30,410 nucleotides of DNA from Myxococcaceae bacterium (GCA_036389955.1 DASVVJ010000282.1:1-30410); one strand, 5' to 3'; positions 15,198 through 21,202 are shown, counted from the stretch's first letter. Numbers and translations are program-made. The notes: generated by a model not told the origin, from the sequence alone.

Positions 15198-15599
15198 TCA
15201 GGCCGGTTCGATGAAGTTCAGCCGGTAGCCGTCCGGATCGGTGACGACGAGCTCGCGGGTGTTCCAGGGCTGGCGCGTGGGCCCCTCCACGCTCAGCCCC
15301 TGCCCGAGCGCCTGGGTGCTCACCGCGTCGATGCCCCCGGGCTCCGCCCGGAACCCCACCAACACCCCGAGGCCTCGCCGGCCCTCGAGCTTCGCTCCGG
15401 GAGGCAGCGAGACGAGGTACACGTCGGCGCTCTCGCGCCACCGCAGGTGGATGAACGGCGGCTCGACCTGCACCCGCTCGAATCCGAGCGCCTCGTAGAC
15501 CTGCGCCGAGTGCTCGCTGTTCGAGACGAGCAGCTTCACGAACGGCAGCAGCGGCGCGTCGGTCTCTTCGGGCTGGCGTACTTTGGCGGGCAGACTCAT
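15198..15599 (-). CDS. VOC-family (glyoxalase/bleomycin-resistance/dioxygenase fold) protein, the last gene of the glycan operon.
   Basis: 133 aa. Its ATG overlaps the upstream glycosyltransferase stop as ATGA, indicating translational coupling. Confidence 0.6.
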   Translation of the reverse strand: MSLPAKVRQPEETDAPLLPFVKLLVSNSEHSAQVYEALGFERVQVEPPFIHLRWRESADVYLVSLPPGAKLEGRRGLGVLVGFRAEPGGIDAVSTQALGQGLSVEGPTRQPWNTRELVVTDPDGYRLNFIEPA

Positions 15600-17494
15600 G
15601 GCAGTAAGGGCCGGGCGATCAGCTCCGTGAGCCAGCGCCGGTCCGTCAGGCTCATCGTCGATGGACGCTGGATGGCCTCGCGATACGCCTCGTAGGTCTT
15701 CAGCGCCGTCTGCTTCCAGGTGAACTGCGCAACGCGCTGCTGGCCTTTCGCCGCGAGATTCCGTCCGAGCGAGGGCTCCCAGGCGAGCTCGACCATCTGC
15801 CGGGCGACGGCCGTGTCATTCATTTCGTCGGCGTAGAGGACGGCATCCCCCGCCACCTCGGGAATCGAGCTGAAGCGCGAGCAGAGGATGGGCGTCTCGG
15901 CCGCCATCGCCTCGAGCAGCGGCAGGCCGAAGCCCTCGTAGGCGGACAGGTACACGTAGGCGATGGCCTGATGGTACAGCGCACGGAGCACCTCGTGAGA
16001 CACCCCGCCCACGTAGTGCACGCCCGGCATGGGCCGCTGGCGCAGGTGGGGGAACACCCCATCCGCCGTGCCCGAGGGGTGGCCCACCAGCACCAGGCCC
16101 GGCATGTCCTCGCGGTGCTTCCACTGCGTGCGGAAGTTCACGTACGAGGCCAGCAGCAGCCGCACGTTCTTGTGCGCGTAGTCGCTGCCGATGAAGAGGA
16201 AGAAGCGGCGCGGCAGGCCCAACGGGCGCAGCACGGCCGCGCTGTCCTCTCCCGGGCGCCGGGCGAACGCGGCGGCGTCCACCCCGTGGTAGACGGTGCG
16301 CACGTGCTCCTCGGGCACCTGGAACTCGCGGATCACCTCGCGGCGGTTGTGGTCCGAGATGGCGATGATGCCCTGCGCCGCGCGCACCGAGACATACGAG
16401 GTGAGCTGGTAGCGCTTCTGGTCCGCGCCATTGGGCCACACCGAGCCGGCGCGGTAGGCAATCAGGTCCTGGTAGCTGATGACGTACGGCACCGGCGAGC
16501 GGAGCAGCAGCGGCAGGTGCTCCGGCTTGAAGAGCTGAGCCGGCCGGTGCAGCAGCTGAACGTGCGAGGGCAGCTCTCCGCCCACGTAGACGGGCAGGCC
16601 CAGCGGCTCGAGCGCCTGCCGCTGCTTGTCCGAGGCCACATAGAAGGACAGGCGCACCGGGGTGTGCTGCGTCAGCGCCTTGCTCAGCTCGATGGCGTAG
16701 ACGCTGGTGCCGTTGATGGCGTCCTCGGGCAGATAGCGGATGTCCAGGCAGACCGAGAGGTCGCCCCGCACACCGCCCAGCGCCCGGGACGAGAAGCCCA
16801 GGGCGAAGTCCGCCTGCGCCGTCTCCCGCTGCGCGGGGTAGTAGGCATGGCGCTCATCGAGCGTGGGGGCCATCGGCAGCACCGCGACGGGCACGTCCGG
16901 CCGGGCGCGGACGAGCGCCTTCGAGGCTCGCAGCGTGATGAACCCCAGGCGCTGGGCCCGCAGGGTCCAGTCCGCCAGGGCATCTCCCAGGCCGTCGAGC
17001 TTCTCGTCGAGCGTGCCGACCATGTCGAGCACCTCTCGCGACAGAAGCGCGAAGGGCATGTCCGGCGCTGGCAGCGTAAGCGCCCGGGGCAGGCGGCTCT
17101 CGCTCATCCACCGGGAAGCCTCGGCCTCGGGGGCTCCCGAGAGGTCTCTCGTGGGAACGATGGCGCCAGCCCGGTCATTCTCACCGAGCACCGCGCGCAG
17201 CTCGGCCACGCAGCTCCCCACGCCCGTGAAGCTGCCCGCCATCAGCAGCACGTCGTGCCCGGTGAGCAGCAGGGCGCGATTGACGGACTGCACGGGAGAT
17301 GGGCTGTGCAGGCTCTCCCAGGGCAGGCTCAGCTCGGAGACGAGGCCGACGAGGCGCCGGTTCAGCGTCTCGCCGCACGCGAAGAGAACGCGTGTCAGCC
17401 CCGGAGGACGCTCGGTGAGCACGGCGTGCAGCCGCTCGGCGTCCACCGCCGCGTCCTCCGTGGGGACGAACAGCAGCTCGAGAACAGGGCGCAT
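15596..17494 (-). CDS. Two-domain glycosyltransferase with an N-terminal GT-A-like region and a C-terminal GT4 (group 1) domain.
   Basis: GT4 signature 'EGFGLPLLEAMAAETPILCSRFSSIPEVAGDAVLY' is present. ATG 17494 lies 4 nt after the stop of the upstream small protein. Confidence 0.8.
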   Translation of the reverse strand: MRPVLELLFVPTEDAAVDAERLHAVLTERPPGLTRVLFACGETLNRRLVGLVSELSLPWESLHSPSPVQSVNRALLLTGHDVLLMAGSFTGVGSCVAELRAVLGENDRAGAIVPTRDLSGAPEAEASRWMSESRLPRALTLPAPDMPFALLSREVLDMVGTLDEKLDGLGDALADWTLRAQRLGFITLRASKALVRARPDVPVAVLPMAPTLDERHAYYPAQRETAQADFALGFSSRALGGVRGDLSVCLDIRYLPEDAINGTSVYAIELSKALTQHTPVRLSFYVASDKQRQALEPLGLPVYVGGELPSHVQLLHRPAQLFKPEHLPLLLRSPVPYVISYQDLIAYRAGSVWPNGADQKRYQLTSYVSVRAAQGIIAISDHNRREVIREFQVPEEHVRTVYHGVDAAAFARRPGEDSAAVLRPLGLPRRFFLFIGSDYAHKNVRLLLASYVNFRTQWKHREDMPGLVLVGHPSGTADGVFPHLRQRPMPGVHYVGGVSHEVLRALYHQAIAYVYLSAYEGFGLPLLEAMAAETPILCSRFSSIPEVAGDAVLYADEMNDTAVARQMVELAWEPSLGRNLAAKGQQRVAQFTWKQTALKTYEAYREAIQRPSTMSLTDRRWLTELIARPLLP

Positions 17495-17498
17495 AAGG

Positions 17499-19772: not shown

Positions 19773-20084
19773 TCACCCCTTGCTCAGCACGCGCTTGGCC
19801 ACATCGCGCGCGCGGTGGAAGGCCCAGCGCGCGGCGCGGTAGCTGAGGGTCTGCGGATGCTGCTCGGCGGAGTTGAGCTTGAGCCGCAGCTGCTCCAGCT
19901 CATTCTCCACGTCCTTGCGGCGCCGCTCGGACTCAATGAGGCGCTGGGTCAGGTCCAGCACGCGGGCGTTGGCGATCTCGAAGTCGCGCAGGGCCTGCAC
20001 GAGGTTGACGCGGTCCAGGTCCGCGGTGTTGGAGCGGCTGTCCTTCTCCTGAGGAGTCGAGCCGATAATGGTCATCTGGGTCAT
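19773..20084 (-). CDS. Small coiled-coil protein B of 103 aa, paralogous to protein A.
   Basis: It has a coiled-coil core and the C-terminal 'WAFHRARDVAKRVLSKG' motif. It sits directly upstream of a glycosyltransferase, as protein A does. Confidence 0.65.
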   Translation of the reverse strand: MTQMTIIGSTPQEKDSRSNTADLDRVNLVQALRDFEIANARVLDLTQRLIESERRRKDVENELEQLRLKLNSAEQHPQTLSYRAARWAFHRARDVAKRVLSKG

Positions 20085-20110
20085 GGGGATTTCTCGCGAA
20101 AAGCGGTCCT

Positions 20111-21202
20111 CTATGTGCGCGGAGCGGAGGGGGTGTCAAGAGCCCCTTCCAGCCACTCCATGAGGGAGGCGACGCCTGCCTCCAGGGTCCACTTGGGCTG
20201 GTAGTCGAGCGCCGAGCGGGCAGCCTCGATGGAGCACGAGGCGGCACGCACATCTCCGTCACGGAACTTGCCGCTCACCACGGGCTCGGGGGCGCCGTAG
20301 CGGCGGGCCAGCTCACGGGCCACGTGCTCGATGGTGGTGGGCCGGCCCGAGCCGATGTCGAACAGCCGCACGTCCTTGCCCGGCCGCTGGACACACTGGG
20401 TGACAGCCTGGGCCACATCGTCCACGTGGACGAAGTCGCGGACGATCTTCCCGTCCTCGTAGATGTCGAGCGACTGCTTGTTGCGGGCCAGGCGGGCAAA
20501 CAGCGTGAGCACGCCGGTGTAGGGGTTACCTGGAGCCTGGCCGGGGCCGTAGACGTTCTGAAAGCGGAGGATGGACAGGCCGCTGCCAAAGGCACGGCAC
20601 CAGGCGGAGAGCATGTGCTCCTGCGTGAGCTTGGTGGCGCCGTAAATGCTGATGGGGCTGGGGTGCGTCTGGCCGGCGATGCTGGGCAAGGCCTCGGCGG
20701 GCTGGCCGTTGGGGCCGATGTGATCCCACTGGCGCTTCTCGAGGGCCTGGCGGGAGCGCCCGGGCGGATAGAAGACGGTGCCCGAGGTGTCACGCCAGGA
20801 GCCATCGCCGTAGACGGCGCGGCTGGAGGAGAGAATGAACTGCTCGGGGACGTGGCGCACGGCGGAGAGCGCGTCGATGAGCTGCGCGGTGCCGTCCACG
20901 TTGACGGAAGCGTGGCGGTGGGACTCGGTGAGCGACTGGCCGGTGCCGGTCTCGGCGGCCAGGTGGATGACGGCGTCCGGCCGGTAGTAGCGGAAGAGCG
21001 TCTTCCAGTTCTCAGCCACGGTGACATCGCCGGGGACGAAGGTAACGCCCTGCGGCATGTCCTTGGGGAGACCGGGGTTGGTGTGCACCTGCGGGTGCAG
21101 GTTGTCGAAGACGAGGACCTCGTCTCCACGCGCCAGCAGCTTGCGGGCGACGTGGCATCCGATGAACCCAGCTCCCCCTGAGATCAATACTTTACGCGGC
21201 AT
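20111..21202 (-). CDS. NAD-dependent epimerase/dehydratase (extended SDR, nucleotide-sugar modifying), the first gene of the glycan operon.
   Basis: 'VLISGGAGFIGCHVARKLL' and 'YGATK' (YxxxK) are present. ATG 21202 follows the SD AGAGGG. Confidence 0.8.
   Translation of the reverse strand: MPRKVLISGGAGFIGCHVARKLLARGDEVLVFDNLHPQVHTNPGLPKDMPQGVTFVPGDVTVAENWKTLFRYYRPDAVIHLAAETGTGQSLTESHRHASVNVDGTAQLIDALSAVRHVPEQFILSSSRAVYGDGSWRDTSGTVFYPPGRSRQALEKRQWDHIGPNGQPAEALPSIAGQTHPSPISIYGATKLTQEHMLSAWCRAFGSGLSILRFQNVYGPGQAPGNPYTGVLTLFARLARNKQSLDIYEDGKIVRDFVHVDDVAQAVTQCVQRPGKDVRLFDIGSGRPTTIEHVARELARRYGAPEPVVSGKFRDGDVRAASCSIEAARSALDYQPKWTLEAGVASLMEWLEGALDTPSAPRT

Follow-up and report, generated by a model that had tools for sequence, protein, structure and literature searches.

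An operon of seven co-directional genes was analysed in a stretch of 30,410 nucleotides from a Myxococcaceae bacterium (GCA_036389955.1 DASVVJ010000282.1:1-30410), the whole of which is referred to below as the window. Two of the genes encode small helical proteins, termed small protein A and small protein B. A and B are real, conserved genes under purifying selection. They are two separate unnamed families without a relative in Pfam, NCBIfam or the PDB, and each family is tightly, often translationally, coupled to a particular glycosyltransferase (GT) gene across phyla. It is proposed, with about even confidence, that A and B are non-catalytic helical scaffold subunits of a glycan polymerisation and termination complex at the cytoplasmic face, of the ATP-binding cassette (ABC)-transporter-dependent (Wzm/Wzt) type. 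The operon and its genes are as follows, with protein lengths in amino acids (aa).

15198-21202, minus strand: operon of seven co-directional genes in the order epimerase/dehydratase, B, GT2, FkbM, A, 632-aa GT and VOC (vicinal oxygen chelate).
20111..21202, minus strand: operon gene 1, nicotinamide adenine dinucleotide (NAD)-dependent sugar-nucleotide epimerase/dehydratase, 363 aa (Pfam Epimerase 3.2e-47, GDP_Man_Dehyd 1.4e-39).
19773..20084, minus strand: small protein B, 103 aa (GC content at third codon positions, GC3, 0.92; homologue family; helices in the AlphaFold2 (AF2) model).
18619..19776, minus strand: GT2 glycosyltransferase, 385 aa from a GTG start or 382 aa from the ATG at 19767 (Pfam Glycos_transf_2 9.4e-17).
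17844..18626, minus strand: FkbM-family S-adenosylmethionine (SAM) methyltransferase, 260 aa, or 253 aa from the ATG at 18605 (Pfam Methyltransf_21 5.9e-13, TIGR01444 3.3e-21).
17499..17831, minus strand: small protein A, 110 aa (GC3 0.89; Shine-Dalgarno-like GGAAGAGGGA upstream).
15596..17494, minus strand: two-domain glycosyltransferase, 632 aa, with a degenerate GT-A-like N-domain and a GT4 domain (Pfam Glycos_transf_1 1.9e-18, Glyco_transf_4 1.8e-8).
15198..15599, minus strand: VOC/glyoxalase-fold protein, 133 aa (Pfam Glyoxalase 3.3e-5, 24.7 bits against a cut-off of 20.6).

The Pfam matches confirmed the seven-gene content and minus-strand order given in an initial annotation of the window, and a small helical open reading frame (ORF) does lie directly before each GT gene as stated there, B before the GT2 and A before the 632-aa GT. 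The same annotation had described all junctions as 4-5 nt or overlaps. This holds for four of them. B and the GT2 overlap by GTGA (a 5-nt gap if the ATG start is taken), the GT2 and FkbM genes overlap by the 8 nt GTGTCTAA (13 nt with the ATG start of JGI), A and the 632-aa GT are 4 nt apart, and the 632-aa GT and VOC genes overlap by ATGA. It does not hold for the epimerase and B (26 nt) or for FkbM and A (12 nt). A scan of the operon for promoters and terminators gave no promoter-like sites and a single terminator-like site, which was outside the operon.

GC-rich genomes hold many spurious long ORFs, and many overlapping ones are present in the window. The small ORFs could on these grounds be chance frames, or untranslated spacers that serve coupling. 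This explanation is effectively refuted. The GC content by codon position of both ORFs matches that of their neighbours and is as in real genes, with values at second positions (GC2) of 0.41 for B and 0.49 for A beside the GC3 values listed above. Independent pipelines annotated both as genes. The dN/dS ratio against Stigmatella orthologues was 0.28-0.40 for the small proteins and 0.13-0.31 for the enzymes, all below 1. Residues are invariant across phyla despite diverged DNA, and there are hundreds of homologues of the same length. The conservation of the small ORFs, on which the initial annotation depended, was therefore upheld.

A search with the single sequence found 62 homologues of B, and a profile search at least 683 clusters. 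Almost all were 95-130 aa long, and no Pfam domain was present in the homologues found by either search. Some carried database names such as 'chromosome segregation ATPase', 'Zn-ribbon protein', 'exonuclease VII small subunit' and 'RNase P p29'. These names were rejected as coiled-coil noise, and the other source names were 'hypothetical'. The family is marked by an N-terminal motif, LDRxSLxQALRDFEIANARVxDLTQRL, and a second, C-terminal motif, S-x-A-[FY]-R-x-A-x-[KR]-I-W-x-x-R-N. Two elements were located in B of the window.

19935..20021, minus strand: 'head' motif of B, residues 22-50, DLDRVNLVQALRDFEIANARVLDLTQRLI, with ten residues invariant across 57 sequences from several phyla.
19779..19847, minus strand: 'foot' of B, a predicted cationic amphipathic C-terminal helix, residues 80-102 (helix in the AF2 model, net charge +6; position of the C-terminal family motif).

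The invariant head residues are Q30, L32, D34, F35, N39, R41, D44, L45, T46 and R48. The AF2 model of B, built on the family alignment, contains a helix at residues 12-73 and a second at 80-102 (predicted local distance difference test score, pLDDT, 80.8). The hydrophobic moment of the foot was 0.50, with an 18-residue maximum of 0.68.

The stalk between the two ends of B was measured from an N-terminal anchor, ANxRVxDL, to a C-terminal anchor, SxA[FY]R, in 166 non-identical sequences. Spacings of 45 (111 sequences), 52 (17), 59 (5), 66 (1) and 101 (2) were found, together with a second series of 63, 70 and 77. A single heptad phase was common to 137 of the 166 sequences. Across the family the stalk covers 45-118 residues between the motifs, mostly in heptad steps. 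Length classes that differ by whole heptads would be expected if a continuous coiled coil must hold two functional ends in register.

The genomic context of family B was sampled in 80 loci from a GTDB scan. They came from Acidimicrobiia, Actinomycetes (Nocardioides, Modestobacter, Nakamurella and Dermatophilaceae), Xanthomonadales (Luteimonas, Lysobacter and Luteibacter) and Myxococcales. Where a downstream ORF of at least 100 aa was present, an orthologue of the GT2 of the window (37-68% identity) followed B directly in 67 of 76 loci. The junction was between -4 and +14 nt in 55 of these 67, and 29 were 4-nt overlaps. In the nine loci without a GT2 match directly after B, the next gene was a class-I SAM methyltransferase in six and another large GT4 protein in two. 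The GT2 orthologue was present in 77 of the 80 loci, and a homologue of the 632-aa GT, about 650 aa in length, lay directly upstream of B in 69. The usual order was epimerase, large GT, B, GT2, in some cases an Acyl_transf_3 gene, and FkbM. Epimerase orthologues (46-67% identity) occurred in 41 loci and an FkbM methyltransferase in 34. An ABC-2 (Wzm) permease and further GTs were found alongside B loci, with Wzm near B in both loci that were annotated, L059 and L037. The latter, from Xanthomonadales, carries FkbM, epimerase, large GT, B, GT2, Acyl_transf_3 and wzm.

Three apparent fusions of B to the upstream GT, each of about 670 aa (L027, L047 and L050), were discarded as GC-rich read-through artefacts because the GT match was in another frame. 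At L054, in a metagenome-assembled genome (MAG) of Acidimicrobiaceae, the B head motif and a GT2 share one frame at 5845-6984. The cause may be a frameshift, an assembly error or a natural fusion of B to the GT2.

The profile of family A was searched against 1.84 billion proteins and returned 105 representatives at E<=1e-3, nearly all of 90-130 aa and mostly matched over their full length. The family layout comprises a CxxC, a helix that terminates in LAREREraNAL-x-L-x-YPP, a Pro-rich linker whose length varies, the segment PLRYxxVDxLNxxxKRxLPxxH and a basic tail. Two elements were located in A of the window.

17775..17786, minus strand: CxxC (C16, C19) close to the N-terminus of the A helix; among 45 diverse members each of the two Cys is conserved in at least 90%.
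17505..17612, minus strand: C-terminal module of A, PLRHRLVDAVNNSLKRQFPDVHRAAKDVGASLLHKL, residues 74-109, with R76 and D81 invariant and P74, N84 and K88 at least 90% conserved in the 45 diverse members.

The CxxC was present in 106 of 139 family A sequences. The C-terminal module has a net charge of +4 and a hydrophobic moment of 0.40. In the AF2 model (family alignment, pLDDT 87.3) a helix at residues 6-53 is followed by a disordered loop at 54-74 and by helices at 75-90 and 92-109. In the zinc hook of the Rad50 type a CxxC lies at the apex of an antiparallel coiled coil and zinc is bound between two chains. In contrast, the AF2 monomer of A places the conserved CxxC near the N-terminal end of a single long helix.

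In all 12 cases with a readable downstream gene, the gene right after A encoded a GT. With the 67 of 76 loci in which a GT2 follows B, the co-occurrence test of small proteins and glycosyltransferases suggested in the initial annotation is strongly positive. In the window and at L086 and L088-L095, A stands directly before a GT2+GT4 protein of 625-704 aa, and the genes there overlap by 4-8 nt or are 3-14 nt apart, in one case 101 nt. A loci also hold rmlA-D, methyltransferases, Wzm/Wzt (Wzt_C in L090), LptF/G and WecG, and other methyltransferases follow the bifunctional GT in L093-L095. A hidden Markov model (HMM) search of the fetched loci revealed two extra A-type ORFs, one before a 374-aa GT2 in L089 and one before a 380-aa GT4 in L094. 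Three pairs of a small helical protein and a GT are contained in L089 at 5363-12214, beside rmlABCD: an 80-aa A-type protein without CxxC and a 374-aa GT2, a 96-aa B and a 377-aa GT2, and a 104-aa A and a 631-aa GT.

A natural fusion was found in Archangium gephyra (L092, 15417-18671). A 1084-aa FkbM+GT2+GT4 protein has the A C-terminal module (PPLRYKLADGANEAIKAHLPAMH...) as its last 50 residues, after a Pro-rich linker (hmmsearch 2.8e-5). From this fusion it is argued that the module may be an anchoring or docking element.

The initial annotation treated A and B as paralogues within a duplicated module. This was not sustained. BLASTP of A against B gave no alignment at E<=100. Comparison of the two profiles with hhalign gave a probability of 2.6% for the first alignments, 2.3% when A was represented by 45 diverse sequences and 2.4-2.7% for larger alignments, and the sole stretch that aligned was generic coiled coil. 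By the initial annotation, similarity no better than that of random coiled coils would count against its reading, and this is what the comparison of A with B shows. Alignment of N-terminal sub-alignments was likewise negative. When the C-terminal segments of A and B were aligned alone the scores were no better than those of reversed-sequence controls, and the C-terminal motif that appears shared by eye was rejected on this result. The 'HRA' motif claimed for both C-termini is restricted in family B to the myxobacterial clade, and the other members of the family have an alignment gap at its position. No B member was returned by the A profile from the 1.84 billion proteins, as judged by a motif check of the matches. 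By HMM search no A match was present in the 80 B loci and no B match in L090-L095, and A and B occur together only in the myxobacterial operon type (window, L088 and L089). The two families differ in phyletic range and in partners. A and B share an architecture and no detectable ancestry.

Very distant paralogy would attribute both families to an ancient duplication of a 'small protein + GT' module that diverged past detection while the long helix, linker and cationic helix were kept. AF2 gives A and B one three-part architecture, both families precede GTs, and there is a loose likeness by eye around [YF]-R-x-[AV]-[DS]-x-[LI]-[NW], for example between RRYVLADRVWRVAKR of L089 and AFRIASRIWALRN of B. 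Set against this are the negative BLASTP, hhalign, control and profile-search results given above and the different phyletic ranges and partner GT folds, and such an origin is considered improbable.

Some physical features are common to both small proteins. In their best heptad register 60% of a/d positions are L, I, V, M or F compared to a background of 31-33%. The C-terminal helices of both are predicted to be amphipathic and cationic, with hydrophobic moments of 0.4-0.68 and net charges of +4 to +6, and the family medians for the net charge of the C-terminal tail are +4 and +5. No transmembrane-like segment was found in any of the seven operon proteins. The maximum Kyte-Doolittle value over a 19-residue window was 0.48 for B and 0.63 for A. 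Profile searches of Pfam, NCBIfam and the PDB and Foldseek against the PDB gave only generic weak coiled-coil matches or nothing for either family. Full-text searches of the literature yielded no description of stand-alone small coiled-coil partners of polymerising GTs. The view that A and B are undescribed accessory components tied to glycosyltransferases is borne out by their conservation, by GT adjacency across phyla and by the lack of a database relative.

The enzymes of the operon were also characterised. The epimerase/dehydratase scored below every NCBIfam equivalog cut-off. The 385-aa GT2 matched PF00535 with 61.9 bits (cut-off 23.3), has intact LDDCS, SNSD and EETDW motifs and had no sequence relative in the PDB. 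The FkbM protein matched PF05050 with 49.7 bits (cut-off 22.7) and TIGR01444 with 76.3 bits (cut-off 37.7) and is a candidate glycan O-methylase or chain-capping enzyme.

The 632-aa GT had been designated 'GT-A+GT4'. Its C-terminal half matched Glycos_transf_1 (67.0 bits) and Glyco_transf_4 (35.0 bits), both above cut-off, and its best PDB matches were GT4 enzymes. The protein is 27-72% identical to the A-associated GT2+GT4 proteins of L088-L095. Its N-terminal half had no Pfam GT2 match, while the N-terminal residues, about 230 in number, align with the GT2 domains of L090-L095. The motifs VVNDxS, LLNSDT and NEENDW of those domains are replaced by FACGET, LLMAGSF and GDALADW in the 632-aa GT, and its B-associated homologues are likewise degenerate in the GT-A-like domain. 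As the acidic motifs are replaced, this GT-A-like domain is probably inactive. The designation thus stands for the GT4 part and for homology to GT2 domains, but the catalytic GT2 motifs are lost. The activity missing from the 632-aa GT may come from the separate 385-aa GT2 in operons of the myxobacterial type. The VOC gene had been counted as an operon member. It is joined to the 632-aa GT by ATGA and has a Pfam Glyoxalase match, but it was not kept in the orthologous loci. In L088 and L089 it is absent after the GT and a convergent Acyl_transf_3 gene stands in its place, which makes a role in the pathway doubtful.

In characterised Wzm/Wzt systems a coiled-coil protein is the hallmark of the termination or ruler strategy (PMC11231755). 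The known chain terminators and rulers with a coiled coil in ABC-transporter-dependent O-antigen assembly include WbdD (Escherichia coli O9a and Klebsiella pneumoniae O3 and O5) and WbbB (K. pneumoniae O12). The coiled coil of WbdD lies between the terminating enzyme at the N-terminus and, at the C-terminus, an amphipathic membrane helix and a site that recruits the polymerase, and in all described systems the coiled coil belongs to the terminating enzyme itself (PMC11231755). The loci of the relatives are similar in holding Wzm/Wzt (Wzt_C), a methyltransferase and a bifunctional polymerase-like GT. As modelled, A and B would also resemble WbdD in an extended coiled coil followed by a C-terminal amphipathic helix, and coiled-coil length varies between systems. 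Unlike WbdD and WbbB, A (110 aa) and B (103 aa) are free-standing and have no catalytic domain, and the FkbM methyltransferase is encoded by its own 260-aa ORF and lacks a coiled coil. The B stalk, at 45-118 residues between motifs, is shorter, and the PDB profile searches detected no sequence similarity.

Two further systems were likened to these loci. The transport-elongation-termination (TET) operons for the common polysaccharide antigen of Pseudomonas syringae and Pseudomonas aeruginosa contain wzm, wzt, a bifunctional GT and an O-methyltransferase beside rhamnose genes (PMC7820976). This gene set is matched by the A loci L090, L093, L094 and L095, a likeness of gene content alone, and unlike in the A loci no small ORF before the bifunctional GT is reported in that paper (PMC7820976). 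The lps locus of Xanthomonas oryzae pv. oryzae BXO1 has the wxoA epimerase, wxoB GT, wxoC GT, wxoD acetylase, wzt and wzm (PMC524487). Its order is mirrored by Xanthomonadales B loci such as L037, a likeness of order alone, and unlike in the B loci no small gene between wxoB and wxoC is mentioned in the BXO1 paper (PMC524487).

The proposed scaffold would act in the assembly of an O-antigen-like or cell-wall polysaccharide that would be methylated, and acetylated in relatives. B would be a head-stalk-foot protein. The partner docked by its invariant N-terminal helix motif would be the 385-aa GT2 or, in some genomes, a methyltransferase whose gene comes next. Its central coiled coil would act as a rigid spacer that sets this partner apart from the GT-A-like/GT4 enzyme, beside which the cationic amphipathic C-terminal helix would rest on the membrane. 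A would pair with the GT2+GT4 enzyme. Its helix would perhaps dimerise, possibly through the CxxC pair, and the flexible Pro-rich linker and cationic PLRY module would tether or dock the enzyme.

DPM3, which tethers DPM1 via a coiled coil, and the GacJ-GacI and PgaD-PgaC pairs provide examples of small accessory subunits of GT2 enzymes that are integral membrane proteins. A and B are similar to DPM3, GacJ and PgaD in that a protein of about 100 aa is co-encoded or associated with a GT-A enzyme, which in those cases needs it for membrane localisation or activity. A and B could be simple membrane tethers or activator subunits of this kind, each keeping one soluble GT at the membrane or stimulating it, with no part in spacing or chain length. 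No GT of the operon has a transmembrane segment, the C-terminus of both small proteins is a cationic amphipathic helix, the coupling to GT genes is one-to-one, and most B members share the one fixed spacing of 45 residues. Unlike GacJ, PgaD and DPM3, however, A and B have no transmembrane helix, and they show no sequence relationship to named families. B also lies between two enzymes, not beside one, and the variation of its stalk, mostly in heptad steps, would be needless for a pure tether. This alternative is judged unlikely.

A and B could also serve the downstream GT with no membrane association, as chaperones dedicated to its folding or stability or as regulators that inhibit or activate it. 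Translational coupling suggests stoichiometric co-production, and a specific protein interface is suggested by the polar face conserved in the B head motif. This reading leaves unexplained why cationic amphipathic C-termini are conserved, why the B stalk is heptad-quantised and why a multi-domain enzyme ends in the A C-terminal module, and a chaperone or regulator is regarded as quite unlikely. On sequence evidence the scaffold, tether or spacer role is more specific and better supported than that of a chaperone or regulator, both of which the initial annotation had also offered. This is due to the Wzm/Wzt context of relatives with rml genes, methyltransferases, LptF/G and WecG. The related loci with wzm/wzt are L059, L037, L090 (with Wzt_C) and L095.

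Several observations weigh against the scaffold and spacer proposal. The heptad count is dominated by one clade (the 111 sequences at spacing 45), and the sequences are not independent. In the myxobacterial clade the B spacing is 39-47 and varies by single residues, not heptads. A short Pro/Gln-rich loop interrupts the helix in this clade. In B of the window the helix is broken by a loop at residues 74-79, and the stalk is short at about 9 nm. The amphipathic helices could bind protein rather than lipid. No wzm or wzt was found in the 30-kb window or in the Stigmatella locus (±10 kb).

A more specific form of the scaffold proposal is put forward tentatively and is itself thought unlikely. Family B would be a free-standing molecular ruler. 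Independently of it, family A would offer another solution, in which bifunctional GT2+GT4 polymerases are tethered by a CxxC-linked helical protein. The ruler would be a catalytically inert B protein of about 100-160 aa. Its head would dock the chain terminator, either the 385-aa GT2 or a methyltransferase, and its foot would sit at the membrane beside the polymerase.

Other genes in the window were recorded. A 762-aa homologue of the eukaryotic major vault protein is encoded at 9928-12216 on the minus strand (MVP_shoulder 2.9e-45, with Vault, Vault_2, Vault_3 and Vault_4 repeats). It had no NCBIfam match, and a vault-shell protein is unusual in a myxobacterial MAG. The 3' flank of the operon (12379-15190) encodes a 506-aa protein whose C-terminal domain is an Rce1-like (CPBP) intramembrane protease, and a CBM20-esterase in convergent orientation. 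Directly upstream of the operon, at 21297-23235, the minus strand carries a polymorphic lipoprotein toxin of the SitA5 family (NF050093, 1.1e-71) and, after it, a weakly matching SitI6-like double-CXXCG immunity protein (1.5e-4). The pair lies in a stretch with GC content down to 0.63, which suggests a mobile toxin-immunity island. A methionine sulfoxide reductase A (MsrA) gene at 28224-28916 on the plus strand has an in-frame TGA (28323-28325) at the position of the catalytic Cys (GCFWG to G-TGA-FWG) and matches the Pfam 'Selenoprotein MsrA helical domain'. It is a probable selenocysteine MsrA that ORF finders shortened.

The findings suggest that a scaffold or ruler function can be a separate subunit, in clusters from Acidimicrobiia, Actinomycetes, Xanthomonadales and Myxococcota. 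If this is true, chain-length control would be testable and engineerable through the heptads of a 100-aa protein instead of a multi-domain enzyme. Should the ruler form hold, the heptad count of a separate small protein would set how long polysaccharide chains grow in many Actinobacteria, Xanthomonadales and Myxococcota. Names and a working hypothesis would become available for hundreds of 'hypothetical proteins' of O-antigen and cell-wall glycan loci, and the annotation of such clusters would be improved.

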